Positions 767 through 43,584 of a stretch of 43,964 nt of DNA are shown here, piece after piece; position 1 is the stretch's first letter; every line of letters begins with the position of its first letter. Position numbers and translations under genes: made by a program. Below the pieces are notes generated by a model. That model was not told the DNA's origin and did no database searches. It worked only from the letters and a program-made list of their open reading frames with translations. The DNA is from a virus (lineage: Duplodnaviria; Heunggongvirae; Uroviricota; Caudoviricetes): the IMG/VR virus record IMGVR_UViG_3300025861_000004; one strand, 5' to 3'.

Positions 767-773
767 TCAGCTC
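767..773 (+). promoter_or_regulatory. TCAGCTC promoter-like motif
   Basis: ATG 805 is 32 nt after the last motif base. Confidence 0.65.
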
Positions 774-804
774 CACCTCACGACGTGGGGTGAGGTACGA
801 CCCC

Positions 805-1347
805 ATGATCCGTATCGTGAGACGCGCCACGCGCGTCGCCGCCCTCCTCACCTACATGACCATGAACATGGTGTTCGTCCTCTCGACCACCTACGTGGTC
901 CGTCCAGATCCGGGCGCGACGAGTACGTCCACCCTGATGGTCCTGCTCTTCCTGGTTCTCGTGCTGGGACTGACCAGCCTCGACGTGCGTGTGACGCACG
1001 ACCTAGGTTTTCGGGAGCCCGGTTGGGTTCTCGTCCCGCGGTTTGCCCTGATGACTGCCGCGGTCCTAGCGAGCGACCAAATCCACCCCACCCCCACCTT
1101 GCGAGCCGTCGCCCTGACCGTCGTGGCGCTGGCCGTCGCCCGTGGTGTGTTCCAGGTGGCCGTCATGCTGAACCGAAGGGTCGTTGAGGTCGACTCTCCA
1201 GAGGTCACGCAGGACGACGACCTGGAGGTCATCGAGCTCCCCCCGGTCCTGGTGTCCTGCCTCCTAGCCTTAGACCCCTTCGTCGACGCGTACTGTGCGG
1301 GTCTCGCCTTCCTGTTCGGCGACCCAGAGGAAGTCACCACCCCCTAA
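805..1347 (+). CDS. Hypothetical membrane protein
   Basis: Several TM-like segments; start chosen from motif spacing. Confidence 0.6.
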   Translation: MIRIVRRATRVAALLTYMTMNMVFVLSTTYVVRPDPGATSTSTLMVLLFLVLVLGLTSLDVRVTHDLGFREPGWVLVPRFALMTAAVLASDQIHPTPTLRAVALTVVALAVARGVFQVAVMLNRRVVEVDSPEVTQDDDLEVIELPPVLVSCLLALDPFVDAYCAGLAFLFGDPEEVTTP

Positions 1348-1378
1348 GAAACCTCTGCGGTATCCTGTAGTTACTACT

Positions 1379-1385
1379 ACAGCTC
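1379..1385 (+). promoter_or_regulatory. ACAGCTC variant of the promoter-like motif
   Basis: 44 nt before ATG 1429, which has a GGAGG SD. Confidence 0.5.
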
Positions 1386-1428
1386 CAGAACCACTGCACA
1401 GACGGTGCGTAGTAGCTGGAGGATACAG

Positions 1429-2109
1429 ATGGCGGAGAAGCGTCAAAGTCTGGGCCAGAGCCTGATGGGCTTGTTCGTGCAGCGGCCTGCGGTAGAGACT
1501 TCCCCTGCGACCAAGACTTCCCCTGCGGCCGAGACACCGACCGTGCTCGCGGAGGCCACACCTCCGGTGGAGACCCCTACGGTCGACCTCAAGGAGCCCA
1601 TCCAGCCCGCGGAGCTCGACTTTCCGAGCGTCCTGCGACGGCAGGGTGTGAACGAGGAGGACCAGGCTGCCGTCGATAAGACGCTCGCGCTCCTGCACAA
1701 GCTGCCCGCCGATACTCCGGTAGAGGTGCGGCGCTCGATCGTCAGCGCGGCGCTCAGCACCTTCGGGACACCGGTCGACCGGATCATCGAGGCCGCGCTC
1801 CTGCACGAGGCCGCACTCGACCGTCACGTGCAGCTCGCGGCGGAGGAGACGGCCGCCGCGACCTCCCGGGTTCGCCAGGTCCTTGACGACCTGGACAAGC
1901 AGGTGCAGGCGGCCCGTCAGCGCGAGGCGGACCTGCGCACCAAGCAGCAGGGCATCGTGAAGGCGTGCGCGGACCTGCGGGCCCGCGTGGGCGAGGTGGT
2001 GACCTTCTTCGGTCCTACCGAGACCGCCAGGGTCCGTGAGTCCTCGGCCAGGCTGCGCGACGTCGTCAAGGTGGACACGGAAGCTCCAGCGACACGGAGG
2101 CCGTCGTGA
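1429..2109 (+). CDS. Hypothetical coiled-coil protein
   Basis: GGAGG SD, high GC3, helical C-terminus; GTGA overlap with the transporter gene. Confidence 0.75.
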   Translation: MAEKRQSLGQSLMGLFVQRPAVETSPATKTSPAAETPTVLAEATPPVETPTVDLKEPIQPAELDFPSVLRRQGVNEEDQAAVDKTLALLHKLPADTPVEVRRSIVSAALSTFGTPVDRIIEAALLHEAALDRHVQLAAEETAAATSRVRQVLDDLDKQVQAARQREADLRTKQQGIVKACADLRARVGEVVTFFGPTETARVRESSARLRDVVKVDTEAPATRRPS

Positions 2110-3916: not shown

Positions 3917-3923
3917 TCAGCTC
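3917..3923 (+). promoter_or_regulatory. TCAGCTC promoter-like motif
   Basis: ATG 3954 at +31. Confidence 0.7.
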
Positions 3924-3953
3924 GAGGACGGTGCGAACTTCATCCCATCCAGG

Positions 3954-4157
3954 ATGAAGAAGTTCACCATAAACCTCTCTGACGCCGAGGCGTCTAAGCT
4001 CGACCTCCTGGGCGCGGAGTTCGGCCCCACATGGGCCGCGGTCCTACGCAGGGCGATCAACCTGTTGCTGCTCTACGTCGAGGTGCGGGAGAAGAAGCAG
4101 AACCTCTGCGTCGTCGACGAGTCTGGCAAGATCGTCGAGCGGGTAAGGATCCTCTGA
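3954..4157 (+). CDS. CopG/ribbon-helix-helix DNA-binding protein
   Basis: N-terminal beta strand KKFTINL followed by two helices (WAAVLRRAINLL). Confidence 0.65.
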   Translation: MKKFTINLSDAEASKLDLLGAEFGPTWAAVLRRAINLLLLYVEVREKKQNLCVVDESGKIVERVRIL

Positions 4158-4856: not shown

Positions 4857-5267
4857 TTACGACGTCGAATCCCGTCGTACCTTGAGGCCCTGCTGCCTTC
4901 GGATGTTCGGGAACCAGGTGGAGTTCACGAAGCTCGCCACGTCGCGCTGCGCGCGGGGTTTGAAGACGACCTTTCCGTTCTCCACCCACAGCGACTCGAC
5001 GCGGCAGCCCGTCCCGTCCAGTCGGTACATGCAGGGAAATACCTCCCCGCTTGGTGCAACGTAGAAGTGGACCTCGGGGTCCATCATCACGTCACCGTTC
5101 TGCTCGTACTGGTGCGATACCGAGTAGAGCCGGTCACCAAGTTGCGCCACGTGGACCGCCATGTAGGTGCCGGCCGCGTTGTCGACCTTGCGGCGCAGCA
5201 CGAGCCCCTGGATGAGGGTGTCGAACAGGGCCTTGGACGTCTGAGTGAGGGGGCGGGGGCGGGCCAT
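4857..5267 (-). CDS. Hypothetical protein resembling the DUF6908/DUF1249 family
   Basis: SHQYEQNGDVMMDPE motif recalled from that family; AGGAG SD. Confidence 0.55.
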   Translation of the reverse strand: MARPRPLTQTSKALFDTLIQGLVLRRKVDNAAGTYMAVHVAQLGDRLYSVSHQYEQNGDVMMDPEVHFYVAPSGEVFPCMYRLDGTGCRVESLWVENGKVVFKPRAQRDVASFVNSTWFPNIRRQQGLKVRRDSTS

Positions 5268-5307
5268 GGGGTTCTCCTTGTGGTTATCAGTCGAAGGTGG
5301 ACATCAT

Positions 5308-5331
5308 TTCAGAGCTGACGTCAGCTCTGAA
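5308..5331. promoter_or_regulatory. Perfect 24-bp palindrome made of two back-to-back TCAGCTC motifs (5312-5318 minus, 5321-5327 plus)
   Basis: TTCAGAGCTGACGTCAGCTCTGAA lies between divergent genes; starts at 5267 (45 nt, SD) and 5359 (32 nt). Confidence 0.8.
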
Positions 5332-5358
5332 TCACCGAGAACCCTCGAAGGCTCCGCC

Positions 5359-7377
5359 ATGAGCACAACAACCTTGGACGACCTCCTCAACGAGGCCCTG
5401 CCCCTGTGGGGGGACGTGGCGGGGCTCATCCAGCAGGATGGGCCCGTCAAGCACTACACGGTGAGCTCCTGGGAGGCGGAGAAGCACGCCAAGGACCTGT
5501 CGGAGAGTCGCTTGGATGACCCGTCAGGGCGCACCACGTTGCTGCTCCTGCGGGGGCTGGTGTCCCACTACCTCCAGTGGAGCAAGTTGTCGGTCTGGGA
5601 CCTAGTAAAGAACTACGACGCGATGTCGCCGGTCATCGAGCGGGGGCGCAAGCTCCTCGCGCTCATCGACCATCCGGTCGCGGCGGCGGAGGTGGCGGCG
5701 GCGCGAGCGGAGGTGGCGGCGGCGTGCGACCACTACGAGCTCACCCCTGGCCAGCGCGAGAAGGTCCTCGCGTTCGACGACTACGCGCTCGGGCTGCTCT
5801 CCTACCACGCGAGTCGGTCGATGCGTCGTCTGTCCCGCCACGACTTCGCGCAGGCGGAGCCCTCCGCGGAGCGGCCCGGCTACAATCGCCAGGTCTACGA
5901 GTTCTGGAACATCGCCTCAGTCGTGTGCGCGCTCGCCGAGCAGCGGGTGTCGGGCGTGACGCTCGTGATGTTCCGCGACCCCGAGGGCACGTTCCGCAGC
6001 TACTTCGCGCTCGCGGTTCGCCACGGGGGGACCATCACGCTCTTCACCGACCGACCGAACCACCCGCACCCGGACTTCGCCAGCATGACGCGCCGGCCGG
6101 ACCGCGACCTTGAGCGGCGTGCCGAGCAGCACTGGTTCCCCTACGACCTGCTCGGACTCGTCAAGCGCGAGGACCCAGGCAGTGTGTCGGGAGCCGCCCG
6201 GTTGTTCGAGGGCCCGCAGACCCAGGTCGCGCGCGTCAACACGGTCGGGGTGCCGATCCGTGAGGTGCGCGACCTCCAGCCGGAGCAGTTCCTGTGGCTC
6301 ATCCACGTCTTTCGTCACATCGTGGACAAGTGCCTCGCGGGCGAGCGGACGGAAAGTATCTCCTACACGGCCAACATGATCCGCGCCCCGCTGGAGCTCG
6401 CCGAGCGGTCGGCCGCCCTCATGGTGCCGGGGGCCTACGAGCCGCTTGCGCTCGCCCCGCTCACTAAGGCCGACCTCGCGCCCGAGGCGCTCGCCCCTCA
6501 GTGGGAGCGCCCGTCGACGGGGTTCAACCGCTGGATGGTGGACCGCTACGGGGCCGAGGTGCCCGACGTGGTGTTCAACGTGGTGAGCGTGGGAGAGGCG
6601 GATCAACTCCTGCCAGCCATGGAGGAGCAGGGTCTGCTACAGCGCACGACCGACCCTTGGGGGAAGGTCGCCCCGAACCCCCTCCGAACCCTCGGGGCGA
6701 ACGACTTTGGGACCGCCGCGTCCCTCGACCGCGACCGCAGGTGGTGCGCGCGTGTGAACCAGTGTCGCGTCATCCAGCGGCTCGCCGTGCGGGAGTTCCA
6801 GCAGGACAAGGAGGTGACCCTGGACTGGTACCGGCGGGCCCTCGTGAAGAATCGAGATCGCCTTGTGCAGGCGGTCGCGGAAGGGGCCCTCGTGCTCCCT
6901 TCCGTTCGCTTCGAGGGCTGCTCAGACGACCCGCAGGCCGCCAACCGGAACACGGTAAAAGTCGGGACGGGCAGGACCTACGGGGATGCCTTCCCTGGTA
7001 GCTACGGGTTTATGGGCGAGGGGAAGCTGTCCGTGTGGTCACGGTCAGACGGTGGCCGGTACCTGTGCGCGGATCGACAGGTCGTGGCGAGCGTCTTTGG
7101 GACTCTCTCGCCTACCTGCCCGGAGGCGCTCGCCGCCCTCTGTGGGGTGGAGGTCCGCGACCTCCCCTGGGGGCTTCAGCACTGGTACAAGGGAGCCCCC
7201 TACTACGGCAACAGCATCCTGGACCGTCTCGACCCTGAGGACTGGGTGCTCAGTAATCCCTGGCTCAAGCTCGACCTGCGCGTCATGGTCGCCCTCTCGC
7301 GCACGGCCTACAAGGAGCGGCGCAAGCGCGTCGGGCTCGACCCCCTCGGGGTGCTCGCTGAGCCGAGGAAGAGCTAG
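5359..7377 (+). CDS. Large hypothetical protein (672 aa)
   Basis: Long ORF with high GC3; start from motif spacing; no family recognised. Confidence 0.8.
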   Translation: MSTTTLDDLLNEALPLWGDVAGLIQQDGPVKHYTVSSWEAEKHAKDLSESRLDDPSGRTTLLLLRGLVSHYLQWSKLSVWDLVKNYDAMSPVIERGRKLLALIDHPVAAAEVAAARAEVAAACDHYELTPGQREKVLAFDDYALGLLSYHASRSMRRLSRHDFAQAEPSAERPGYNRQVYEFWNIASVVCALAEQRVSGVTLVMFRDPEGTFRSYFALAVRHGGTITLFTDRPNHPHPDFASMTRRPDRDLERRAEQHWFPYDLLGLVKREDPGSVSGAARLFEGPQTQVARVNTVGVPIREVRDLQPEQFLWLIHVFRHIVDKCLAGERTESISYTANMIRAPLELAERSAALMVPGAYEPLALAPLTKADLAPEALAPQWERPSTGFNRWMVDRYGAEVPDVVFNVVSVGEADQLLPAMEEQGLLQRTTDPWGKVAPNPLRTLGANDFGTAASLDRDRRWCARVNQCRVIQRLAVREFQQDKEVTLDWYRRALVKNRDRLVQAVAEGALVLPSVRFEGCSDDPQAANRNTVKVGTGRTYGDAFPGSYGFMGEGKLSVWSRSDGGRYLCADRQVVASVFGTLSPTCPEALAALCGVEVRDLPWGLQHWYKGAPYYGNSILDRLDPEDWVLSNPWLKLDLRVMVALSRTAYKERRKRVGLDPLGVLAEPRKS

Positions 7378-8037: not shown

Positions 8038-8044
8038 TCAGCTC
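8038..8044 (+). promoter_or_regulatory. TCAGCTC promoter-like motif
   Basis: ATG 8075 at +31; -10 slot reads TCGTA. Confidence 0.7.
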
Positions 8045-8074
8045 TGATTGTGGGTGGAGGTTCGTAAGGAGGGT

Positions 8075-8365
8075 ATGCGTTTTGAGATCCGCGTCTTCGT
8101 CGACCACCTGGACGTCATCCACGTGGCCGCAAACCCCTCCGAGTTTCTCCAGACGATGTGCAAGGAAATCACCAGGGCAAACTACCCCCTGGAGTCGACC
8201 TTCCACGTCCAGGGGAGTCTGTACATATCGACCTGGACGTTCCCCGGAAAGTCTTGGGACCAGGCCCTCGCGCGGGTCGTGAATGCCCTTCGGCACCACG
8301 GGATGGACCTCGTGGTCGTCGACGGCACGACGGCCCCGCTACTTCAGCAGCCGGGAGACGCCTAG
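8075..8365 (+). CDS. Hypothetical protein
   Basis: High GC3 ORF with start at the motif spacing. Confidence 0.7.
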   Translation: MRFEIRVFVDHLDVIHVAANPSEFLQTMCKEITRANYPLESTFHVQGSLYISTWTFPGKSWDQALARVVNALRHHGMDLVVVDGTTAPLLQQPGDA

Positions 8366-8367: not shown

Positions 8368-8374
8368 TCAGCTC
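8368..8374 (+). promoter_or_regulatory. TCAGCTC promoter-like motif
   Basis: ATG 8405 at +31. Confidence 0.7.
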
Positions 8375-8404
8375 CGGACGTGCGGGTCCGGGTACATGGT
8401 GACT

Positions 8405-9439
8405 ATGCTCACACCCACCCGCAAGCTCGCCTCGATCCAGGTGATCGAGGGCTTCGACCCTATCCCGAACGCCGACGCCATCCTGCGCACCCGCGTGCTC
8501 GGCTGGACCCAGGTGGTTCGCCGTGACGAGGTCGAGGCGTTCCGCGCCTCCGACAACCTCTGCGTGTTCTTCGAGATCGACGCCCAGCTTCCAGACGGTC
8601 CCGCGTGGTCGGAGTTCATGCGCAAGCACGGCTTCGTGGTGCGTACCGTGCGGCTGCGCGGAGTGCTCGCCCAGGGGCTCGCGCTGCCCGTCTCGATCCT
8701 TGGGGAGGGCCCTGTGCCCGCCGTGGGTACCGACGTGTCGGAGCAGCTTGGGGTCACGCACTACGAGAAGGAGGTGCCGGACGACCCACGCATCTCGGGT
8801 CCCTTCCCGCCGCTCGTCCCCAAGACCGGGGAGCTGCGCCTCCAGTCGTACCCCGCGGTGCTCGACGACCTCCGGGGACACGCCTTCTACGTGACGACCA
8901 AGATCGACGGCGTGTCGGGGACCTTCTTCCAGCCGTTTGACGGGTCTCCACTCGTCGCGTGCCAGCGCAACTGGTCGGCCGCTCCTGGGGACCATCCCAT
9001 CTGGCGGGTCGTGGACCGCTACGACCTCCGCGTCATGATCCCGCCCGGCCTGGCCGTGCAGGGGGAGATCGCCGGCCCTGGCGTACCGGGCAAGAAGAAC
9101 CACCTTGGGCTCAAGGAGATGGAGTTCTTCGTCTTCCGCGTCTACGACGTGCGCAGGGACCGCTTCTTCAACTACTACGAGCTCGTCGCGTTCTGTCGCG
9201 ACCGGGGCCTCCGCATGGTGCCCGTCGAGCGCGTCGTGGAGGGACGGGAGGCCGTCGAGTATCTCCACACCTTGGAGGGGTGGCTCGCCGCGGCGCGGGG
9301 CTTCTACGAGGGTACGACGCACCGCAAGGAGGGGATCGTCGTCCAGACCATCGACGTCGTTCGGTCGGAGGCTCTCGGCGGCTCTCGCCTCTCGTTCAAG
9401 GTCATCAACAACGACTTCCTCCTCAAGGAGCAGGCATGA
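8405..9439 (+). CDS. ATP-dependent RNA ligase, DRB0094/Rnl2-like family
   Basis: RKLASI N-terminal OB domain, motif I KIDG, QGEI, FRVYD, EGIVV, FKVINNDFLLK. Confidence 0.9.
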   Translation: MLTPTRKLASIQVIEGFDPIPNADAILRTRVLGWTQVVRRDEVEAFRASDNLCVFFEIDAQLPDGPAWSEFMRKHGFVVRTVRLRGVLAQGLALPVSILGEGPVPAVGTDVSEQLGVTHYEKEVPDDPRISGPFPPLVPKTGELRLQSYPAVLDDLRGHAFYVTTKIDGVSGTFFQPFDGSPLVACQRNWSAAPGDHPIWRVVDRYDLRVMIPPGLAVQGEIAGPGVPGKKNHLGLKEMEFFVFRVYDVRRDRFFNYYELVAFCRDRGLRMVPVERVVEGREAVEYLHTLEGWLAAARGFYEGTTHRKEGIVVQTIDVVRSEALGGSRLSFKVINNDFLLKEQA

Positions 9440-9987: not shown

Positions 9988-11072
9988 CCGATCCCCATCT
10001 GGCGCAGGGCCTTGCGGTGGCGCGCGGCACCCAACTCGTCTCCCGTCGAGGCCAGCAGGTCGGGGGACCACAGGGGGACACCGATCTTAGCTGCGATGCT
10101 CGTCAGTACCGCCGCAGCGTGCGCGGCGCTTTCCACTGTGGGGGAGTGGATGACGAGGCCCCCCTGTAGAGAAAGGGTCTCGTCAGGGTTGAGCGCGGGC
10201 TCCTCGGGGACACGCATCGTGACCGACCACACCTCGATGTGCAGACCCGCCTCGCGAAACTCCTCCGTGACCTGCATGGCGACACCAGCGGACACCGCAC
10301 CCCCATACACTTTGTACATGGTGTAGTTGGCGGGCTCTAGGCACTGGAGGTAGCGAAAAACTGCGGGAGGATCTTCGTCTGACGTCCAGGGCATACCGGT
10401 GAAGAACTTGTTGTTGTAAACCTCGTCGCACAGGACTACGTCGCCGAACTGGCAGGGGCCGTCGTAGCGAACCACCGACAGGACGCGAGCCCGCACGGGG
10501 TCCATCCACTGCACCCACACTTTCTCGCGGGTGTACCGGTTTCCTGACAGGGGGACGTCCATGAGTGCCACCCCCTTGTCCCTTCGCTGGCTAAGCAAGC
10601 CCGTCTCCGTCCACAGCCGTTTAGCTTCCGTCACGTTGTTGAGGGCCACGTAGGCAAGGGCCAAGTTGTGCTTGGCCAGGCGCAAGCACTCCGCGGATAG
10701 CGTCTTGAGGTCGATGGCCTTCTTCAGGAGGTCGACTACCTCCTGCCACTTGGCCTCGGGTTTTCGCAGCAGGACCGCCAGGTTGTAGTAGGGCACCGCC
10801 CAGGTAGGGTCGGCGGTCATGGCGGCACGAAAGCGATCTTCCTTGCCCGGGGAGTCGTCCAGGATTCCGGCCAGGTTGAGCAGGCGAGCTTGCGCGAGGT
10901 CGCTGTAGGAGCGGCTCGCGATCATCCGGCGCAGGAGCGAGAGCCCCTGTTGCTCGGTCGCGCACTTCTGCATGGTTTCGAGCGCCTGGGTAAGCACCTG
11001 CGTGGGATGCTGCGTGGGATGCTGTGGAGTTGCGGGAGCTTCGCGTCCCACCAGGCGTAGTAGAGAGGTCAT
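9984..11072 (-). CDS. TPR-repeat-containing hypothetical protein
   Basis: DPTWAVPYYNLAVLL and AKHNLALAY TPR-like helices; somewhat lower GC than neighbours. Confidence 0.7.
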   Translation of the reverse strand: MTSLLRLVGREAPATPQHPTQHPTQVLTQALETMQKCATEQQGLSLLRRMIASRSYSDLAQARLLNLAGILDDSPGKEDRFRAAMTADPTWAVPYYNLAVLLRKPEAKWQEVVDLLKKAIDLKTLSAECLRLAKHNLALAYVALNNVTEAKRLWTETGLLSQRRDKGVALMDVPLSGNRYTREKVWVQWMDPVRARVLSVVRYDGPCQFGDVVLCDEVYNNKFFTGMPWTSDEDPPAVFRYLQCLEPANYTMYKVYGGAVSAGVAMQVTEEFREAGLHIEVWSVTMRVPEEPALNPDETLSLQGGLVIHSPTVESAAHAAAVLTSIAAKIGVPLWSPDLLASTGDELGAARHRKALRQMGIG

Positions 11073-11097
11073 GTGAGCCTGTCGATAAAACTAGGGA

Positions 11098-21540: not shown

Positions 21541-21541
21541 C

Positions 21542-28746: not shown

Positions 28747-28776
28747 TTAGGGCCCGCTACCCCTCGGCTCACTCCC

Positions 28777-29573: not shown

Positions 29574-29827
29574 TGTCCAAGGGCAGCAGGCGGGTGGTCT
29601 TCTGGTCAGCGGTTACGGCCGCCGGCCTTGGCGTGACGCTCGCGGCGGGCACGAGCGCGGGTCAGCGGGTCCTCGGGACGTGGCAGGACGCGGTCGCCAC
29701 CTGGACCTCGCTGGGCACCCTCGCGTCAGGTGCCGCTGGGGGCCTAGCGGCCGTTCGTCGCGCGGGCCAGGTGGTTCGGTCCGTCCTCACGCGGGTCAGC
29801 TCCGCGGCGGATCGCCCCGGCGATTAA
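29573..29827 (+). CDS. Small hypothetical membrane-associated protein
   Basis: TGATG coupling; hydrophobic. Confidence 0.6.
   Translation: MSKGSRRVVFWSAVTAAGLGVTLAAGTSAGQRVLGTWQDAVATWTSLGTLASGAAGGLAAVRRAGQVVRSVLTRVSSAADRPGD
29796..29802 (+). promoter_or_regulatory. TCAGCTC promoter-like motif inside the end of the upstream CDS
   Basis: ATG 29833 at +31; -10 slot GCGAT. Confidence 0.7.
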
Positions 29828-29832
29828 CCCGC

Positions 29833-30270
29833 ATGGCCACCCTACCGAGCTACGAGATCGTGAGGGCGCGCGAGGACGCGCGCGTTGCGGCCTTCTTGGC
29901 TCCCTACAAGGGGAACGCGTCTTCCGAGGTGCTCAGCCTAGTCCTGACGACCAAGAGGGAGCGCATCGACCAGGCGCTCACCCCGTACCGACCAGGGCTC
30001 CCCCCGAAGGACCTCGTGCTCCTCCATGCGAGTTGGCAAGCGTATGCTGAGGGGTTTGAGGCGGGTGTCATCTACGACTTCTACGTCGTCGACGGGGTGC
30101 TGTTCTACAAGCTGCACCACGAACCGTGCACGAACATCCGGCCCGTGACTGCGTTCCCCGACTGGGACAAGCTGGAGTTTCGACCCTGGTGCGCCACCTG
30201 GGACGACACGGAGGTGTGGCTCGCCCGGCGACGAGAGCAAACCTTGACAGCCAAGGTTGCCGACAGATAA
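29833..30270 (+). CDS. Hypothetical protein
   Basis: High GC3; start at motif spacing. Confidence 0.7.
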   Translation: MATLPSYEIVRAREDARVAAFLAPYKGNASSEVLSLVLTTKRERIDQALTPYRPGLPPKDLVLLHASWQAYAEGFEAGVIYDFYVVDGVLFYKLHHEPCTNIRPVTAFPDWDKLEFRPWCATWDDTEVWLARRREQTLTAKVADR

Positions 30271-32032: not shown

Positions 32033-32347
32033 CTAGGCGCTCATCCGTGAGCGCCTAGCCGTGGGGATTGGCTCGCAACGAATGCGCCGGGCCAGGATCT
32101 TCATCGCCCACGGCTGAGGGAGTGCGGGGGTCGTGAAGACGAAGCCGAACGGTCGACGCAGCATGCGCGTGACCTGCACGTTGAAGGGCGTGCAGGCTTC
32201 TTGCAGGACCTTCCGGTACTCCTCGATGTCCTCGTACTCGGACTCGTCGCGCCAGCGGTCAGCGAGGCGGCACGCAAGGTCGCGGATCGCGTCGAAGAAC
32301 GGACGAACGACGTCCATGGGGCGGGAGGGGGTCGAAGGTGGGCTCAT
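32033..32347 (-). CDS. Hypothetical protein
   Basis: Start at motif +31. Confidence 0.7.
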   Translation of the reverse strand: MSPPSTPSRPMDVVRPFFDAIRDLACRLADRWRDESEYEDIEEYRKVLQEACTPFNVQVTRMLRRPFGFVFTTPALPQPWAMKILARRIRCEPIPTARRSRMSA

Positions 32348-32366
32348 ACCCACTTGTCAACGATCC

Positions 32367-32918
32367 CTACGACTTCAGAGCTGACCCGAGCCGCGCGCGA
32401 AGGGAGTCGAGGACCCCGCGGGCGTCGTCGTTCATGGCCCGCATGGTCTTCTCGGCGTGGGTGAGCTCGCTTTGGAGGCGAGCTACCTCCTCGGTGAGTC
32501 GGCGGATCTCTGCCTTATGGGCGGCTGCCTCACGGCCGATGCGCGTGACGATGTCGACCTCGTCCTCGATGAGGTTGTCATCGTCCAGGTGCCTGCGAAT
32601 GGTGCCCTCCAGCAGGAGTCGGCGCTGCTCGGACTGGCGACGAACGCGAATCGCCTCGTTACGGTCGCGCTCAGCGAGCGCTAGTTGACCGCGCAGGTAG
32701 GAGGGATCATCCTTGTCATCGACGGTCTCTGATCCTTCAAGGATCGCGTTGATGTACCGGACGTGCGGGCACTTGCAGGTGTCGTCCTCGGGGCAGTCCT
32801 TGAGGTGCTCGACGCTGTAGTCAACGACGTAGCGGGCGAGCCACGCGGCCAGGAGGTCCGATCGGTCCTTCTGGGCGCGAAGCTCCTTCTCTAGCTCGAT
32901 CTCGCGGGTGGTGGGCAT
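32367..32918 (-). CDS. Hypothetical coiled-coil protein
   Basis: Heptad-like C-terminus; GAGG SD-like sequence. Confidence 0.7.
   Translation of the reverse strand: MPTTREIELEKELRAQKDRSDLLAAWLARYVVDYSVEHLKDCPEDDTCKCPHVRYINAILEGSETVDDKDDPSYLRGQLALAERDRNEAIRVRRQSEQRRLLLEGTIRRHLDDDNLIEDEVDIVTRIGREAAAHKAEIRRLTEEVARLQSELTHAEKTMRAMNDDARGVLDSLRARLGSALKS
32378..32384 (-). promoter_or_regulatory. TCAGCTC promoter-like motif
   Basis: ATG 32347 at +31; -10 slot TTGAC. Confidence 0.75.
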
Positions 32919-34111: not shown

Positions 34112-34118
34112 TCAGCTC
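34112..34118 (+). promoter_or_regulatory. TCAGCTC promoter-like motif
   Basis: -10 slot TCTAC; ATG 34159 at +41 with GGAGG SD. Confidence 0.7.
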
Positions 34119-34158
34119 CGATCTTTGCGTTCCTCTCTACCTGTTAGGGAGGAACGAG

Positions 34159-34380
34159 ATGGCACACCAGATCACCATTAGCGACGCGTTGTTGACCCGC
34201 CTGCGTGAGCTAGCGAGCGACAAGACGGGGCTTGACCAGGCCGAGGAGCAGGGAAAAGAGTTTCGAGTCCCGGAGGCCAGCGAGGGAGATCCGGAAGCAG
34301 CCTACGACTTAGGTTGCGCGGACGGTGAGATCCTGCTGGCTCGAAGCCTGATCGCAGAGATCGACAAGGTGAACTCATGA
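34159..34380 (+). CDS. Small hypothetical protein
   Basis: Strong SD. Confidence 0.7.
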   Translation: MAHQITISDALLTRLRELASDKTGLDQAEEQGKEFRVPEASEGDPEAAYDLGCADGEILLARSLIAEIDKVNS

Positions 34381-34737: not shown

Positions 34738-34744
34738 TCAGCTC
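34738..34744 (+). promoter_or_regulatory. TCAGCTC promoter-like motif
   Basis: ATG 34775 at +31; -10 slot TTTAC. Confidence 0.72.
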
Positions 34745-34774
34745 CCGTCAGACGGCTCGTGTTTACTACCCCCC

Positions 34775-35905
34775 ATGAGCAAACACACCTTCCCCACCCT
34801 GTACGAGAAGAGCAGCACGGGCGCGATCAAGCAGTGGACCATCTCGGTGGATGGCAACGTCATCACCACCGAGTGGGGCCTCAAGGGAGGCGCCCTCCAG
34901 AAGACGAGCGACCCCATCACGGAGGGCAAGAACCTCGGCAAGTCGAACGCCACGACCCCCGAGCAGCAGGCGATGCTGGAGGCGGAGGCCAAGCACACCA
35001 AGAAGAAGAAGTCGGGCTACGTCGAGTCGATCGACTCCGCCGAGGCCGGCGAGGTGGACGCGCTCGTGCAGGGCGGTGAGTGGCCCATGCTGGCGGAGGT
35101 CTTTCGAGACCACGCGCACAAGGTCGTCTACCCCGCCGTCATCCAGAAGAAGTACGACGGGCACCGCTGCATCGCGCAGGTGGACAAGGCAGGCAAGGTG
35201 ACGCTGTGGTCGCGCGAGCGTCGCCCTATCGAGACGATGCCTCACATCCAGAACGAGCTTGAACGCGTCTGCGCACTCGCGGGCATCAAGGACTGCTTCC
35301 TCGACGGGGAACTCTACATCCACGGGATGGGGTTCCAGTTGCTCACGAAGTTCATCAAGAAGTATCGGCCCGGCGAGAGCGAGAAGGTCCAGTACCACAT
35401 CTACGACATCATCACCGACGAGTGCTACCGGAAGCGGTACGCACGACTGTCGTTCATCGAGGAGCACGGGGACAAGACCAAGGTCGTCCGCGTCGAGTCG
35501 ATCTTCGTGAACAACGAGGCCGAGGCCGCGGAAGCCTTCGCGCACTTCGTGTCCCTCGGCTACGAGGGGCTCATGATGCGCCTGCTCGGTGAGGGCTACA
35601 AGCGGGGCAAGCGCACTTGGTTCCTCCTCAAGATGAAGGGGTTCCTTGACGCGGTCGCCCGCGTCAAGAAGCTCATCGAGGGAACGGGCAAGCTCTTGGG
35701 CCATGTCGCCGTGTACGAGTGCGAGACACCCGAGGGACGCACCATCCTCGTCACGGCGACGGGCGAGTTCGGCCCACGCAAGGCCGCGTGGGAGCAGCAG
35801 ACCGGGATCGGGGAGAACCTGGAGTACCAGTACTTCGAGCGCACCGACGACGGCCTCCCCCGCTTCCCGACGGCCCTAAGGTTCGTTCCCGGCCTGCACT
35901 CGTGA
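34775..35905 (+). CDS. ATP-dependent DNA ligase
   Basis: WPMLA, motif I KYDG, FLDGELY, YHIYD, YEGLMMR, LLKMK, C-terminal OB domain ending PRFP. Confidence 0.92.
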   Translation: MSKHTFPTLYEKSSTGAIKQWTISVDGNVITTEWGLKGGALQKTSDPITEGKNLGKSNATTPEQQAMLEAEAKHTKKKKSGYVESIDSAEAGEVDALVQGGEWPMLAEVFRDHAHKVVYPAVIQKKYDGHRCIAQVDKAGKVTLWSRERRPIETMPHIQNELERVCALAGIKDCFLDGELYIHGMGFQLLTKFIKKYRPGESEKVQYHIYDIITDECYRKRYARLSFIEEHGDKTKVVRVESIFVNNEAEAAEAFAHFVSLGYEGLMMRLLGEGYKRGKRTWFLLKMKGFLDAVARVKKLIEGTGKLLGHVAVYECETPEGRTILVTATGEFGPRKAAWEQQTGIGENLEYQYFERTDDGLPRFPTALRFVPGLHS

Positions 35906-37405: not shown

Positions 37406-37412
37406 ACAGCTC
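37406..37412 (+). promoter_or_regulatory. ACAGCTC variant of the promoter-like motif
   Basis: 73 nt before the RRM gene; no -10 match. Confidence 0.35.
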
Positions 37413-37853: not shown

Positions 37854-37860
37854 TCAGCTC
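37854..37860 (+). promoter_or_regulatory. TCAGCTC promoter-like motif
   Basis: ATG 37892 at +32. Confidence 0.68.
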
Positions 37861-37891
37861 CGGTTCGGGCTCACTCTCCGGGTTCCCTCCC

Positions 37892-38431
37892 ATGCGGGAA
37901 CCCTCCATCCATCCCGGTGAGGTCCTCCTCACCGACTTCAGCAGCAACACCTACGCCTACAAGTACCGCCTCTCCTTCACGGGAGAGCGGAGCTTCCTGC
38001 GCGTCCACAGAACCGATCTCCACATCGGACAGGCAGCCCTGATCTGCGATCTGTCCCTAACCCGGCCCGAGGCCGAGGCCCTGGGCGCGGCCTTGGACAT
38101 CTACCTGATGTGCGGGGGGTTGCGTAACAGGTACGAGCTACATCCGAGCCGTGGTGAGTACCCCCTCATACACTCGAACGGCAACGTGACGCTTGGGAAG
38201 TTCGTCACGTTGCCGAGCGGGCGGGTCTACACCTGCAAGTCGCTCGCGACCTACCGCGCCGACCTGGTCGATAGCTTCGGGCTCGTCGTGGACGAGCCGC
38301 AAGGCCACGAGTGCGTGGGTCTTGGCGACCGCGTCGCTGACCTGGCGCTCGACCTTGCGGACGCCACCATGCTGCGAGATGGGCTGGCGCAGTTCGTCGC
38401 GTCCGCTCAGTTAAGCAGCCTTCCCTCCTGA
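37892..38431 (+). CDS. Hypothetical protein
   Basis: High GC3; motif-spaced start. Confidence 0.7.
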   Translation: MREPSIHPGEVLLTDFSSNTYAYKYRLSFTGERSFLRVHRTDLHIGQAALICDLSLTRPEAEALGAALDIYLMCGGLRNRYELHPSRGEYPLIHSNGNVTLGKFVTLPSGRVYTCKSLATYRADLVDSFGLVVDEPQGHECVGLGDRVADLALDLADATMLRDGLAQFVASAQLSSLPS

Positions 38432-38919
38432 GGAAGCATGGAGCGGAAGGCTCCCTCGACCCTGGTGGGCTGCCAGCGTGTGATGCGCGGGGTGCAGGAC
38501 TCTCCACGCTCGATGAGGCCGCTCCATACGGAGACGCCATCCCCGCGGGCCTCGCTGAGCAGCAGCACCCCGTCCTGACATCCAGGCACCTCGTCGAGTC
38601 GGCCATCCAGGTAGAGGAGCTCGATACGACGCTCCTCGGCGGGGTCGTCCGGGACCTTGGGCATCCAGCACTCGGCCGCGTGGAACACCGCGAAGGCCCC
38701 CTCGAGTTGGTGGCACAGCGCCCGGAGGGCCTCTCGCTGGTCCTCCAGCCGAGGGATGCGGGACAGGTCTGAGGGGACCTCCGCGTGGACCTGTCCCAAG
38801 AGGTCTCGCCACATCACGAAGCCAAACGGCGCAATGCGCCCGTCCCGAGCGAACTTGCTCTCGATGAGGTGCTGTATCCGGGCGACCGCTTCGTCCCGGT
38901 CGAAGGATGTTGGGTACAT
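38407..38919 (-). CDS. Hypothetical protein
   Basis: Start at 38919 (or 38928); high GC3. Confidence 0.65.
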   Translation of the reverse strand: MYPTSFDRDEAVARIQHLIESKFARDGRIAPFGFVMWRDLLGQVHAEVPSDLSRIPRLEDQREALRALCHQLEGAFAVFHAAECWMPKVPDDPAEERRIELLYLDGRLDEVPGCQDGVLLLSEARGDGVSVWSGLIERGESCTPRITRWQPTRVEGAFRSMLPQEGRLLN

Positions 38920-38951
38920 GTCTTGCATAGTGGCCTGATGAACCCTCAAGA

Positions 38952-38958
38952 GAGCTGA
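38952..38958 (-). promoter_or_regulatory. TCAGCTC promoter-like motif
   Basis: ATG 38919 at +33; -10 slot GCCAC. Confidence 0.62.
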
Positions 38959-39504: not shown

Positions 39505-39933
39505 CGTGAGAGAGGGGCCTGACCGCGCACTCAGCACGAGCCCCGCGGGAAAGCTGCGCAGCCACTCGGAGTCGTGCCCCACGTAGAAGTGTGGGCACGA
39601 CTCCTTGCCACAGGAGTGCCCCGTCTCGATGACGAGCAGGTGCGGAGGGAGGTTCGACACGAACTCCACGTAGGTTGGGTTGAACGGGGAGCCGGCGACC
39701 TGCCGCACGGTGCTCGCGTCGACGACCTTGATCGTTCCCCCCTCGCACGACACGACGGTCATCTCAGTTCGAGACCCCTCGCTCCAGCACAGGCTGGTCT
39801 GGGGGATGCGATACTCGGCCTGCATCGACAGGAAGCCGTCACGTTTGCGGCACTTGATCCCCACGGTCTGGAGCAGGTCGCGGAGCACCTTGGTGAGGTG
39901 GAACTTCTCGCTGTGGTGGTTCGGGGTCGACAT
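39481..39933 (-). CDS. Hypothetical protein
   Basis: Start at motif +31. Confidence 0.7.
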   Translation of the reverse strand: MSTPNHHSEKFHLTKVLRDLLQTVGIKCRKRDGFLSMQAEYRIPQTSLCWSEGSRTEMTVVSCEGGTIKVVDASTVRQVAGSPFNPTYVEFVSNLPPHLLVIETGHSCGKESCPHFYVGHDSEWLRSFPAGLVLSARSGPSLTLPAAQPA

Positions 39934-39955
39934 GACCGTTAGTCGATGAGGTTAG

Positions 39956-40264
39956 CTACTTCGGAGCTGAGTCCCACAAGGCCGCGATCGCGTCCCGCCC
40001 TACCTGGGCCGCCAGGGCGCGCAGCTTGCGGACCTTGTTGGCGTCCTTGCGACGCACCCGCGAGATCCAGCGCTCGAAGTCGCCCCCGTGCTGGCGGGCG
40101 AGGCCGGCGGCCCCGTCCACGATCTCACCGAGCTCGGTGACTCCGAGAAGCAGGGTGTAGCGTCCCTGCCACTCGTAGACCGAGAAGGGCGCGCGCTCCC
40201 AGACGAGGAGGCCCCGCGGGGGTCCCGGTTCGCACCTGCGGTTCGAGGCCGTGTAGTAGCTCAC
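39956..40264 (-). CDS. Hypothetical protein
   Basis: GTGA coupling. Confidence 0.65.
   Translation of the reverse strand: MSYYTASNRRCEPGPPRGLLVWERAPFSVYEWQGRYTLLLGVTELGEIVDGAAGLARQHGGDFERWISRVRRKDANKVRKLRALAAQVGRDAIAALWDSAPK
39964..39970 (-). promoter_or_regulatory. TCAGCTC promoter-like motif
   Basis: ATG 39933 at +31; -10 slot TCGAC. Confidence 0.75.
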
Positions 40265-40518: not shown

Positions 40519-41108
40519 CAGTCCTCCACGTGCCGAAGGCCGAAGGACGTCGCGGCGCTGACGAGCGCGCGGAACGCGTGGTTCTCGGTGGGTCCCGCGT
40601 CGTGGATGCCTCGGCGGTGGCGAAGGCGTGCGCGCCAGCAGCCCGACCGGCCCGAGTGGAACCCGCTGGGGTCGAAGTACACCTCGACGTCGGCCGTCGT
40701 GTAGCTGTCCTCGTGGAGCGTGTGGGGAGACGCGTCGGGCGGCAGGGGCTCGAACGCCGACTCCAGCGGGTCGCAGAGACACGAGTGCAGCCTCTCGCTG
40801 CACGTCGCGCAGCGGTCGCCTCCGTCCGTGACCAGGCACAGGTAGCTTGAGGGCTGGACCTTTCGGCGCATGAGGGGCAGCGACGCGCGGCAGAACGGGC
40901 AGGCCACCAGGCCCGCCACCTCCCCCATGCACCAGGAGCCCGTCCATAGGTGGGAGGCCAGCATCCCTCCGTTGTGGACGCGGAACCGAATGTGCGACTC
41001 GGCGCGTCCGCAGCAGGTGGGTCGGGGACGCAGCGCCTCGATCTCCTGCCGCCGTCGGTCGAGTAGGTTGCCGCGGAACTCTCGGATCTGCCTGGGAACG
41101 TCGCTCAT
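40518..41108 (-). CDS. Cys-rich hypothetical protein
   Basis: TCCG, CPFC, CATC, CLC motifs. Confidence 0.7.
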   Translation of the reverse strand: MSDVPRQIREFRGNLLDRRRQEIEALRPRPTCCGRAESHIRFRVHNGGMLASHLWTGSWCMGEVAGLVACPFCRASLPLMRRKVQPSSYLCLVTDGGDRCATCSERLHSCLCDPLESAFEPLPPDASPHTLHEDSYTTADVEVYFDPSGFHSGRSGCWRARLRHRRGIHDAGPTENHAFRALVSAATSFGLRHVED

Positions 41109-41139
41109 CCCTGATGGGTAGAGCGATGCCGACCGACCG

Positions 41140-41190
41140 GAGCTGAAGGAGTTTCGTCAACCCACCCGCTGGGCTACGAGACGTCAGCTC
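41140..41190. promoter_or_regulatory. Divergent pair of TCAGCTC motifs (41140-41146 minus, 41184-41190 plus)
   Basis: Starts at 41108 (+32, TCTAC) and 41221 (+31, CCGAC). Confidence 0.75.
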
Positions 41191-41220
41191 CATCCCGCCG
41201 GAAGGTTCCGACCCTTGGTC

Positions 41221-41565
41221 ATGCAGACCTTCATCCTGCGGGAGGAGCACGTGAAGCTGCTCCGCGCCGCCTCCGTCGACACGAACCTGGCCGAGTGGGG
41301 AGCCCCCACGATCGACCCGAAGCGCCCCTTCGGGAACGGCGACATCACCGGGGACATGGCCCGCATCCTCGGGATGGGGGACCCGTCGGAGCTCGGGAAG
41401 ACCGACCGGGAGCGGTTCGAGCGTCTGATGCTGAAGCTCTTCCGGGAACTCGGCGACGCCCTCCAGGTGGTGCTGGCGGCCGGGTCGTTCGCGCCGGGGA
41501 CCTACGTGCAGGGGCTGGTGGACGGGCGCCACTCGTGGCGGCGCGTCGATCGGCTTACCGACTGA
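41221..41565 (+). CDS. Hypothetical protein
   Basis: WGAPTIDPKRPFGNGDI; high GC3. Confidence 0.75.
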   Translation: MQTFILREEHVKLLRAASVDTNLAEWGAPTIDPKRPFGNGDITGDMARILGMGDPSELGKTDRERFERLMLKLFRELGDALQVVLAAGSFAPGTYVQGLVDGRHSWRRVDRLTD

Positions 41566-41593
41566 TAGCCTATATGGCTATCAAGCCATCTAG

Positions 41594-42595
41594 CTAGCTC
41601 TTTAATTCAGAATAGAACACGCCGTAGCTATATTCGCTTAAATCGACCCATTTGTCCTCGTGAACTTTAACTGAGGTATGTGGTGCCACACACCATAAGT
41701 AACCAGGCCACGGTTGGAGAGCTGCAATGATTAGTTGCGTTTTATTCACAGTAACGTGAAGCGGAACAGTTTGATTGATTATGTCAACCCACCCTGTGTA
41801 GGGTGCGTTATTGATGTATGTTATTATAGGTAGGGGCAAGGATTCTAACCCCAGGCTCTCCAAATTCATGTGCTTAAAGCGAGCTGCTGATAGTTCTTTA
41901 GCCGTTTTTCGTGGGTCTTCATTGCTCCAATTCTTGGGATAGTCGACCTCAAAAATGGGTACGAGACTATCGACGACGCTCCACATAATTAAGATTCTTT
42001 GCTTCTTGGTAGTCACTTCTTTCCATGACCTATTGTTTATAGATATACGATTGTCAATCGCGGACAACGCGATTCTATGTATTATAGACCTCAAACAATC
42101 AAACAAGTGTGACTTACACACCTTACCTTCCCAGTCCCTGCACTTTACACTGTAAGTGGTGGATGCGTGACATGCCCCGTTGTGTTTATCAAGAGAAGTG
42201 TTCCTGACACTTACGTAGTCGCATGTAATAGCACGGAACAGCACATACTCGTCCAACAGACTGTTACCATCTCTCTGTATCACAGAATATTTTGATCCCG
42301 CGGGGGCTTCTGCCAGTACGACTCTTATGTCAGGAGGTACTGATCGAGCCAGTTCAATAGGTTTTTGAATTGACTCGTCTAATATCCCCTTAACCTCTAC
42401 AAAAACGCGGGCACCAGGTAGCCAGAAGTCGGGCAGGTACCACGTCCCGCTCGGTAGCTGGTAGCCCTCCTGCTCGTAGGTCCACTCGATCCCCTTGGAG
42501 TCGAACCACTCGGCCCAGGCGGCTTCCAGCTTGGAGCGGAACTTGACGCCCTTGTAGGTGGTGGGGATGGCGGCGATGCGAGGTGGGGTGCTCAT
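41594..42595 (-). CDS. PD-(D/E)XK nuclease-domain protein with an AT-rich C-terminal region
   Basis: FRSKLEAAWA...YLPDFWLP...FVEVKG; abrupt GC drop after about codon 55. Confidence 0.75.
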   Translation of the reverse strand: MSTPPRIAAIPTTYKGVKFRSKLEAAWAEWFDSKGIEWTYEQEGYQLPSGTWYLPDFWLPGARVFVEVKGILDESIQKPIELARSVPPDIRVVLAEAPAGSKYSVIQRDGNSLLDEYVLFRAITCDYVSVRNTSLDKHNGACHASTTYSVKCRDWEGKVCKSHLFDCLRSIIHRIALSAIDNRISINNRSWKEVTTKKQRILIMWSVVDSLVPIFEVDYPKNWSNEDPRKTAKELSAARFKHMNLESLGLESLPLPIITYINNAPYTGWVDIINQTVPLHVTVNKTQLIIAALQPWPGYLWCVAPHTSVKVHEDKWVDLSEYSYGVFYSELKS

Positions 42596-43584
42596 GGGGT
42601 GCGTCCTGCCTGGGGTTCGAGGTGTTCGACTGCGGGGTACCAGGTGCGGCATACCCTCAGAGCTGACGTCTTGAGCCGGTCGAGCACCCCGAGCAGGTGA
42701 GAGGCGGCCTCGCCCGACCGGATCTCCGTCTCCGAGTACCGGAGCGCCGAGTAGCCGAGGGCGTAGAACGCCTGGGCGGTCTCGGTGTCGTAGTCGATGC
42801 ACGCCGACGGATCGCGGAAGCGGCAGCTGGGGCCATGGAAGGCTTCACCGTCGCAGAAGATGAGGATCGTCCGTCCATCCTCCAGGCGCACCTCGATGTC
42901 GGCCTCTCGGCAGGTCGTCTCCCCTCGGACTTGGATCGTGCGCCAGCGATTGCGAGCGTGGATGACGATGCCTTCCGCCTCCATCTGGCTCACTAGCTCG
43001 TCTTCCAGGCCGCTGTGGAGCGTAAGGAGGGTCAGAGTCTGATGGATGGTTCGGACCTTCCGCGTGTGCATCATGCGGTCGAGGATCTCCTTCCCGAACG
43101 CATGCTCACCGATGGCCCGCAGCACCGGGTAGGTGACCCCCGCTTGCTGTCGGATGTCGTTGATGCGGTCGCCGGCCTGGATGGCGTGAACGACCCTCTG
43201 ATAGGTGGGGTCCCCTGGCTCCCAGCGAAGCGTCCTCGCAGTCAGCCCGTCTCGCCGCACCATGGGCACCTTGCCCTTTGGGCTGAGGTGATCAGTCGGC
43301 TTGGTGTCGAAGGTCAGGGCCTCGTACTGGCGCTTCCCGAGCTTCCTCCGCAGGTCGTCGCAGGTGGGGCAGCGCTTACGCCCCTTGAGCGCCTTGTCGC
43401 GCACCTCAAAGAGGCTCCCGCACTTCCTGCACCTCGTCGTGAGCCGGTACTCTGCGCGCCAGGCTAGCCACTCGTGTAGGAGCTTCCGGTGATCGTCGTC
43501 GAGGCGCTTGCGGAGGTGCTGTGTGAGGGCGCGGTAGGTGGGCATGGGCTGCCCGCAGACCCGGCAGTCGCCTAAATAGTTCAT
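42592..43584 (-). CDS. Zn-finger plus DUF559/Vsr-like endonuclease
   Basis: CRVC, CRKC, CPTC; EADI...IFCDGEAFH...LGYSALRYSETEI. Confidence 0.72.
   Translation of the reverse strand: MNYLGDCRVCGQPMPTYRALTQHLRKRLDDDHRKLLHEWLAWRAEYRLTTRCRKCGSLFEVRDKALKGRKRCPTCDDLRRKLGKRQYEALTFDTKPTDHLSPKGKVPMVRRDGLTARTLRWEPGDPTYQRVVHAIQAGDRINDIRQQAGVTYPVLRAIGEHAFGKEILDRMMHTRKVRTIHQTLTLLTLHSGLEDELVSQMEAEGIVIHARNRWRTIQVRGETTCREADIEVRLEDGRTILIFCDGEAFHGPSCRFRDPSACIDYDTETAQAFYALGYSALRYSETEIRSGEAASHLLGVLDRLKTSALRVCRTWYPAVEHLEPQAGRTP
42660..42666 (-). promoter_or_regulatory. TCAGCTC motif inside the end of a CDS
   Basis: 65 nt before ATG 42595; extended CGTCAGCTCTGA match. Confidence 0.45.

Follow-up and report, generated by a model that had tools for sequence, protein, structure and literature searches.

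What does the heptamer TCAGCTC do in IMGVR_UViG_3300025861_000004, a viral DNA of 43,964 bp (the window, below) in which it stands at one gene boundary after another? An earlier note on this DNA had read it as the upstream half of a two-part promoter that drives mostly leaderless genes from a dedicated sigma factor. Working, like that note, from sequence, we arrive at a related answer: the best overall explanation is, with good probability, that the heptamer belongs to the main promoter of a huge tailed phage, which would start transcription on the ATG itself and is likely read by a sigma factor of the phage's own.

The window contains 26 exact copies of TCAGCTC; dinucleotide-preserving shuffles contain 8.94 ± 2.76, and none of 100 reaches 26. 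The variant ACAGCTC adds four copies (1379, 13932, 21505 and 37406) for a total of 30. The earlier observation stands, with the tally amended from 29 copies, three of them ACAGCTC. We called open reading frames (ORFs) in the window by third-position GC content (GC3), which is effective at 65% GC. By this measure, 18 exact copies have the ATG of a supported ORF 31–33 nt past their last base: 13 at 31 nt (3917, 8038, 8368, 11109, 16907, 19039, 19311, 28740, 29796, 32384, 34738, 39970 and 41184), four at 32 nt (767, 5321, 37854 and 41146) and one at 33 nt (38958). The ACAGCTC copy at 21505 adds an ATG at 31 nt, which opens an ORF of 11 codons only. The counts of the earlier note (19 starts at 31–33 nt, 14 at exactly 31 nt) hold up, and the start codons that it had corrected (5359, 8405, 32347 and 41221) match the GC3-based calls. 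At six further copies (1379, 5318 on the minus strand, 22788, 24455 on the minus strand, 25442 and 34112) the start lies 39–53 nt off, each time behind a Shine–Dalgarno (SD) sequence of the AGGAGG, GGAGGA or AAGGAG type, in agreement with the SD-bearing leaders proposed for longer spacings.

Positions 1-39432 of the window correspond to C103:21237-60668 in a 7.2-Mb assembly of 260 contigs and 66% GC (G000). Across this assembly an ATG falls at offset 31 behind 96 of 1137 TCAGCTC copies, compared with 3–30 at neighboring offsets. Nearly all offset-31 copies lie on C242 (195 kb), C103 (61 kb), the first ~70 kb of C37 (155 kb) and C98. These four phage contigs hold 146 motif copies, 98 of which are followed 30–33 nt later by the start of a coding-looking ORF, exactly 31 nt later in 84. 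C98 probably continues the tail of the window, because its promoter is identical to the one at 41184; an exact 60-nt match from that tail found no contig in G000.

The genes on these contigs bear on whose signal this is. C37 carries genes for a large terminase, a portal and a head protease, and C242 one for a 1556-residue tail hub with a lysin domain; these genes identify the element that carries the motif as a tailed huge phage. Paralogs are nearly absent between the four contigs, which probably represent one genome, of 270 to about 426 kb. The RpoB of G000 is 85–88% identical to those of Limisphaerales-like Verrucomicrobiota metagenome-assembled genomes (MAGs), and the contamination of the bin is 7.45%. 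Since RpoB places the MAG in the Verrucomicrobiota and C37 and C242 carry phage genes, the phage contigs appear to be passengers in the bin, and the binning is weak evidence of the host. Near-identical pieces of the phage are filed in IMG/VR, where an exact-pattern scan returned near-identical copies of this same phage and single, probably chance matches, with no diverged relatives. Its DNA also occurs in activated-sludge and wastewater runs (labeled 'DNA?' or '?'), and a megablast of 8 kb against the INPHARED phages gave no match.

Could the motif instead mark a host regulon, read by an alternative host sigma that the phage exploits with no factor of its own? The weak binning evidence and the ~30 sigma-70-family genes of the MAG speak for such a signal. 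The other 256 contigs of G000, however, hold no full two-box copy at the right start distance, only a handful of partial matches at chance level, and none lies beside the sigma genes of the MAG; moreover, the box differs between related phages (described below), which better fits a phage-borne reader. We find a host regulon barely credible.

Aligning 96 genome-wide copies resolves two boxes. The upstream, -35-like consensus TCAGCTCCG occupies -37 to -29, with (T/A)CAGCTC followed by C and G, a G at -38 and a T at -27. The downstream, -10-like box tCGACta lies at -13 to -7 (T46 C73 G69 A72 C72 T44 at -13 to -8), in line with the CGAC-type second box of the earlier note. A C stands at -1 in 77 of the 96 copies, ahead of the A(+1)TG. 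Between C(-31) and T(-13) there are 17 nt, about 17–18 bp of separation overall. As had been remarked, TCAGCTC and CGAC are unlike the sigma-70 consensus. Conservation is limited to the two boxes, with unrelated spacers between them, and the motif lacks symmetry, as suits recognition by a sigma domain acting as a monomer better than by a dimeric regulator. An origin as a miniature inverted-repeat transposable element, another repeat or chance was rejected on the unrelated spacers, the two conserved boxes and the gene orientation of all copies. TAG is the commonest stop codon of the phage (173 of 317 ORFs, versus 130 of 400 in host contigs), and in 18 promoters it directly abuts TCAGCTC, so that the stop codon runs straight into the 37-nt promoter and the promoter into the next ATG.

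We term this two-box promoter class I. The copies in the window are as follows:

767..805, plus strand: class I promoter; ATG 805 at 32 nt; predicted leaderless gene 805-1347.
1379..1431, plus strand: ACAGCTC variant, weak -10 box; SD-led ATG 1429 at 44 nt; gene 1429-2109.
3917..3954, plus strand: class I promoter; ATG 3954 at 31 nt; predicted leaderless gene 3954-4157.
5267..5318, minus strand: class I promoter, TTCGACT box; short AAGGAG leader and ATG 5267; gene 5267-4857; back-to-back with the 5321 copy.
5321..5359, plus strand: class I promoter; ATG 5359 at 32 nt; predicted leaderless gene 5359-7377 (672 residues).
8038..8075, plus strand: class I promoter; ATG 8075 at 31 nt; gene 8075-8365.
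8368..8405, plus strand: class I promoter; ATG 8405 at 31 nt; RNA ligase gene 8405-9439.
11072..11109, minus strand: class I promoter, ATCGACA box; ATG 11072 at 31 nt; gene 11072-9984.
16870..16907, minus strand: class I promoter, GCGACA box; ATG 16870 at 31 nt; gene 16870-16322; paired divergently with the 16939 copy.
16939..16976, plus strand: class I promoter, TTTGACA box; +31 lacks an ATG; directed toward the tRNA cluster (tRNA-Glu at 17193 and 17270); predicted +1 at C-G.
18198..18235, plus strand: TCAGCTC, weak -10 box (TACGAT, no CGAC); no ORF behind it; predicted +1 at A 18235, following C; upstream of an unannotated 225-nt stretch and tRNA-Val 18460.
19039..19076, plus strand: class I promoter, GCGACG box; ATG 19076 at 31 nt; gene 19076-19351.
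19311..19348, plus strand: class I promoter, GTCGACT box; ATG 19348 at 31 nt; gene 19348-19812.
21505..21542, plus strand: ACAGCTC variant, ATCGAC box; ATG at 31 nt of the 11-codon ORF, ahead of ORF 21603-22010.
22788..22835, plus strand: class I promoter, ATCGACT box; predicted +1 (C-A) directly on AGGAGG; ATG 22833; gene 22833-23147.
24402..24455, minus strand: TCAGCTC copy; SD-led ATG 24402 at 47 nt; gene 24402-23989.
25442..25503, plus strand: TCAGCTC, weak -10 box; SD-led GTG 25501 at 53 nt; AAA ATPase gene 25501-27330.
28740..28777, plus strand: class I promoter; ATG 28777 at 31 nt; gene 28777-28974.
29796..29833, plus strand: class I promoter; ATG 29833 at 31 nt; gene 29833-30270.
32347..32384, minus strand: class I promoter, GTTGACA box; ATG 32347 at 31 nt; gene 32347-32033.
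34112..34161, plus strand: class I promoter, TCTACC box; SD-led ATG 34159 at 41 nt; gene 34159-34380.
34738..34775, plus strand: class I promoter, GTTTACTA box; ATG 34775 at 31 nt; ATP-dependent DNA ligase gene 34775-35905.
37854..37892, plus strand: class I promoter; ATG 37892 at 32 nt; gene 37892-38431.
38919..38958, minus strand: class I promoter; ATG 38919 at 33 nt; gene 38919-38407.
39933..39970, minus strand: class I promoter, ATCGACTA box; ATG 39933 at 31 nt; gene 39933-39481.
41108..41146, minus strand: class I promoter, CTCTACC box; ATG 41108 at 32 nt; gene 41108-40518; paired divergently with the 41184 copy.
41184..41221, plus strand: class I promoter, TCCGACC box; ATG 41221 at 31 nt; gene 41221-41565.
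13932..13938, plus strand: ACAGCTC within the helicase-methylase gene, in antisense orientation; not followed by an ORF; probably chance.
37406..37412, plus strand: ACAGCTC, no -10 box; 73 nt before ATG 37485; assignment doubtful.
42660..42666, minus strand: TCAGCTC, no clear -10 box; no start codon at 31 nt; unassigned.

With the boxes at these distances, transcripts would begin on the start codon, and the geometry would make most target mRNAs leaderless. The translation signals of the phage agree with this placement. An SD-like pentamer at -16 to -5 precedes 2 of the 98 starts at 30–33 nt, compared with 14 of the 26 starts at 34–70 nt. Leaderless translation from a 5′ AUG predicts a strong preference for ATG; ATG opens 96 of the 98 close starts versus 19 of the 26 distant ones, the other seven being GTG, and in the crudely called set of SD-led starts across the phage GTG accounts for 140 of 290. 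In addition, where a copy has a -10 box and no ATG at +31, the predicted -1/+1 step is pyrimidine–purine in 15 of 19 cases (~25% expected), and several of these non-ATG sites sit directly on AGGAG.

The same distances would also suit an element that acts in RNA, as part of a fixed 37-nt 5′ leader or intercistronic element, a processing site or a non-SD enhancer of translation; the strict spacing to the ATG fits such an element, and many copies, including the 18 abutted by TAG, occupy short co-directional gaps. This alternative fares poorly on other counts. The divergent pair GAGCTGA-nn-TCAGCTC fills the entire intergenic gap at 5312/5321, and further divergent pairs occur at 16901/16939 and 41140/41184, with at least seven more elsewhere; back-to-back copies that fill divergent gaps leave no room for other promoters upstream. 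The copy at 16939 faces the cluster of five tRNAs and the one at 18198 a 225-nt ORF-free stretch ahead of tRNA-Val, the latter with its predicted +1 at C-A (18234/18235); a translation signal would be purposeless at either site. Longer-spaced copies come with an ordinary SD, pyrimidine–purine steps mark the predicted +1 where there is no ATG, and an asymmetric two-part motif with a variable spacer is typical of sigma recognition. We regard a role in RNA as very improbable. The geometry, SD, start-codon, pyrimidine–purine, tRNA and divergent-pair comparisons, along with the restriction of the motif to the phage contigs, together favor the -35/-10 arrangement with +1 on the ATG that the earlier note put forward, and we consider with fair confidence that class I is a phage promoter class, most probably one that yields leaderless mRNAs.

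Which polymerase would use such a promoter? The Pfam beta/beta′ core families PF00562 and PF00623 matched only the host rpoB and rpoC, on C12, and no phage ORF contains a DFDGD-type motif, although very divergent multisubunit enzymes could be missed by these searches; the one large phage protein with DVDGD is the tail hub-lysin. The T7-type family PF00940 likewise matched no phage protein, yet it was silent in all controls, and for this reason that search is uninformative. The phage appears to have no RNA polymerase of its own. As no phage polymerase is apparent and the boxes are unlike the sigma-70 consensus, the likeliest reader is the host core enzyme with a phage sigma.

A profile built from the extracytoplasmic function (ECF) sigmas of the MAG matched two phage proteins, C242:20701-21483 and C37:128340-128969. 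The first, of 257 residues, consists of a beta domain at the N terminus and, after it, sigma2 and sigma4. Among representatives at 50% identity, 425 are related to it (E ≤ 1e-3), and the family is encoded chiefly on viral contigs of 100–600 kb; of 40 sampled relatives, 12 match Sigma70_r2 and 11 match Sigma70_ECF. The family profile aligns to sigma-H (PDB 3mzy) across sigma2–sigma4 with an E value of 9.6e-12, and the protein matches PHROG 1740, 'RNA polymerase sigma factor'. Its AlphaFold model (pLDDT, the predicted local distance difference test, of 87.5) consists of the N-terminal beta domain and two helical domains, and the top Foldseek matches are nearly all ECF or other sigma factors; 1or7, 6jcx and 5zx2 are among the matches. 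From profile and model, this is the one complete, divergent ECF-like sigma of the phage. The second match, C37:128340-128969, has two region-4-like stretches and no sigma2, and a 127-residue protein with a C-terminal Sigma70_r4 match is encoded behind a TCAGCTC promoter at C37:97902. The dedicated phage or ECF-like sigma of the earlier note has thereby gained a divergent two-domain candidate, whose pairing with the motif we infer; that the 257-residue sigma reads the TCAGCTC class has, in our estimate, about an even chance.

The two sigma-like genes at C242:21474 and C37:128969, both on the minus strand (loci L009 and L010), share an identical 16-nt start context, GGTATCGTGGCGATCC, with a GTG start and a product beginning 'VAI...'. 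They are the only such pair on the phage contigs, and the 83% identical ortholog of the sigma has GGTAGCGTGGCGATCC. This shared context could be left over from a duplication, or it may act as a translational control site common to both genes.

In the mechanism that we propose, the host core polymerase carrying a phage-encoded sigma, for which the 257-residue protein is the best candidate, would recognize boxes at -37 to -29 and -13 to -7, ~17–18 bp apart. With the boxes so placed, initiation would fall on the A of the ATG, in most cases preceded by a C. The majority of the ~100–130 target genes would be made as leaderless mRNAs and translated from the 5′-terminal AUG with no SD. A minority of copies, located 8–22 nt further upstream, would give a short leader that bears an SD, and a few would drive tRNA or noncoding RNA.

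Several observations weigh against this account. The -10 box takes the form CGAC, CTAC or TGAC in 54 of the 98 close copies and is absent or weak in ~45%. C at -1 also precedes 52% of the SD-led starts of this phage, and for that reason it is a weak signal alone and a moderately specific one. The sequencing runs that match window positions 16000-24000 and 18900-20300 are DNA runs, with no RNA run listed. As for the sigma, no TCAGCTC lies in its orientation upstream of the sigma gene in four related phages, and the boxes are without the ECF hallmarks 'AAC' (-35) and 'CGT' (-10). With ~85% of the phage genes lacking a known family, an unrecognized polymerase or activator is possible. Finally, the 257-residue sigma might serve a second class of start-adjacent element instead.

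This second class, class II, has the form (G)GGTAG-N8/9 before ATG or GTG and is found at ~41 gene starts on C242, C103, C37 and C98. It has C at -1 and no conserved upstream (-35) box. Class II genes include the portal (C37:119939), several large genes of C242 and, in the window, the following:

24459..24475, plus strand: class II element, GGGTAG-N8-ATG; ATG 24473; gene 24473-25453.

GGGTAA or GGGTAG stands 14–16 nt before the start of the sigma gene itself in four related phages, and GGTAG-N9-ATG gives a weak, ~2-fold peak across 51 sigma-family loci from distant phages. Together, these two findings suggest that the 257-residue sigma could read class II. Class I would then keep its promoter geometry and be used by another reader, whether a second sigma-like protein, an unrecognized polymerase or an activator in the style of MotA/AsiA. 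The sigma2 part of the 257-residue family is far better conserved than the sigma4 part, and other sigma4-like proteins are at hand in C37:128340-128969, with its two region-4 matches, and in the 127-residue protein at C37:97902. However, ECF-like sigmas of two domains as a rule require a -35 as well as a -10 element; class I has both, whereas class II has no upstream box; the remaining sigma-like candidates have no sigma2 domain; a search that was not exhaustive revealed no MotA/AsiA or polymerase; and the -35 box of class I changes along with the sigma among related phages. We judge this division of labor unlikely.

That change is seen when the 257-residue sigma is compared with its orthologs. 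On the contigs whose sigmas are 83% and 63% identical, TCAGCTC-N30-ATG is retained at the divergent neighboring gene of the sigma, with the 30-nt spacer between motif and ATG wholly diverged. A contig with a 44% identical sigma has 16 copies of TCAGATC in 20.8 kb, seven of them with an ATG at the same offset; Logan SRR13208895 contig 8603 (51 kb) belongs to this TCAGATC phage. Position 5 of the -35 box is thus fixed at 63–83% sigma identity and changes from C to A at 44%. Beside a 31% identical homolog, at 11476-13790 of IMGVR_UViG_3300036770_002369 (L027), are five copies of TGTCGATTGTGGCTAAACC-N12-GGATAG-N7-ATG, an arrangement that, by its layout, is that phage's own leaderless two-box promoter. 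A shared layout with a phage-specific upstream box is expected if a phage-borne sigma4 reads the box and is consistent with the 257-residue sigma as the reader. The sigma4 recognition helices differ across the orthologs.

A fixed-distance k-mer search around 58 sigma homologs from IMG/VR found nothing above background in most of the 20-kb neighborhoods. The hexamer GAGTGG, which occurs 37 times at L048/L049, was rejected as a promoter; it is a coding repeat within ORFs, of the type K-E-W-x-x-N-G-x-L-H-R-E-D-G-P-A, which we take to be MORN-like. On a 188-kb viral contig with the sigma family, IMGVR_UViG_3300023257_000008 (L028), we observe eight copies of CTACTC-N14-ATGATCC that abut starts. 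In two relatives (L088 4190-4231 and L089 4836-4877), a conserved CCCACTAGCGGnGTGATACATCGG precedes an SD-led gene by ~20 nt; it resembles an extended -10 element (TGnTAcAt) and may be an early promoter for the host sigma.

A broader reading of these comparisons would be that a clade of huge phages carries a private family of ECF-like sigmas with an N-terminal extension. Every member would pair with a -35 box of its own (TCAGCTC; TCAGATC at 44% identity; GCTAAACC at 31%) and start transcripts on the AUG, giving more than 100 obligately leaderless genes. We advance it tentatively and place it somewhat short of an even chance.

The identifiable genes of the window (RNA ligase, DNA ligase, guanylate kinase, a POT-family transporter, an AAA ATPase, an intein-bearing methylase-helicase and five tRNAs) fit a huge phage. 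Those without a motif entry above are as follows:

2106-3452, plus strand: POT/MFS peptide-transporter gene, within the phage region.
7045-8031, minus strand: guanylate kinase gene, within the phage region.
11098-16314, minus strand: gene for a DUF6094 methyltransferase and helicase of 1738 residues, interrupted by Hint/intein and LAGLIDADG matches.
17193-18937: five-tRNA cluster, Glu-CTC, Glu-TTC, Pro-TGG, Val-AAC and Arg-ACG.

A POT/MFS membrane transporter is unusual cargo for a phage. The GC-rich ORF-free stretches between the tRNAs (18235-18460 and 18540-18860) gave no Rfam match, and a tRNA-like sequence at ~17345-17425 that ends in GCCA was not called by ARAGORN. Pfam assigned no family to ten window proteins encoded behind class I promoters. 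In the intergenic regions of the structural module we saw no obvious consensus late promoter, only scattered TATAAT-like boxes.

If the 5′ ends are as predicted, most nonstructural genes and some tRNAs of this phage are expressed from ~130 copies of one private promoter, as leaderless transcripts in the case of the genes. Few leaderless regulons inferred so far in any genome would then match its uniformity, and it would offer a handle on how a huge phage takes over host transcription without a polymerase of its own. The promoter is also a precise aid to annotation, as it pins down start codons and reveals small genes in a phage for which ~85% of the proteins belong to no family. The 425 representatives of the sigma family, combined with phage-specific -35 boxes, could supply natural orthogonal sigma/promoter pairs for synthetic biology and a testable case of co-evolution between sigma4 and the -35 element. 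Should the clade-wide reading prove true, transcription and translation would be insulated from each other by design: leaderless mRNAs would be translated only when made from their own promoter, since a read-through copy has neither an SD nor a 5′ AUG.

The kind of signal is known; this version of the promoter and its likely sigma reader are not described. Among huge metagenomic phages, some have been noted to encode sigma-70 and anti-sigma-like proteins of their own (Al-Shayeb et al. 2020, PMC7162821). That work shares with ours the phage-encoded sigma and does not draw the link between a sigma-private promoter and leaderless genes; in its text the word 'leaderless' is absent and the single mention of a promoter does not concern phage promoters. 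Our search of the literature on leaderless transcripts and sigmas in jumbo phages turned up only AR9 and phiKZ, both with polymerases of their own; phages of this type have beta/beta′-like subunits, which PF00562 and PF00623 did not find here. T7-like promoters are contiguous elements of ~23 bp from -17 to +6, which a two-part signal from -37 to -7 does not fit. Closer are the promoters of ECF (group 4) sigmas such as E. coli sigma-E and M. tuberculosis sigma-H, which share two short boxes ~17 bp apart and a factor made of sigma2 and sigma4. Class I differs from them in having neither AAC nor CGT, no autoregulatory copy, a regulon of more than 100 genes and a +1 on the ATG, and the phage candidate differs in an extra N-terminal beta domain of ~60–80 residues.

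Phage sigma cascades are well known from gp28 and gp33/34 of the B. subtilis phage SPO1 and from gp55 of T4 with its late promoters (TATAAATA). The likeness lies in a phage sigma that redirects the host core to a promoter class of its own, with related phages having their own box sequences. T4 late promoters consist of a -10 element only and need gp33 and the clamp, and to our knowledge neither SPO1 nor T4 has a genome-wide leaderless design. Sevostyanova et al. 2007 (J Mol Biol 366:420) are said to have found that the middle and late promoters of Thermus phage phiYS40 start transcripts at the start codon, mostly as leaderless mRNAs. Genes with a '-10 region adjacent to ORF' design are described in Deinococcus–Thermus (PMC12340547), and class II comes closer to this design than class I does. 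What phiYS40, itself a large phage, and the Deinococcus–Thermus genes have in common with class I is a promoter class placed for transcription from the start codon; theirs is a -10-only TAnnnT read by the primary sigma of the host, whereas class I combines a dominant -35-like heptamer with a CGAC-type -10 box and is likely read by a sigma of the phage.

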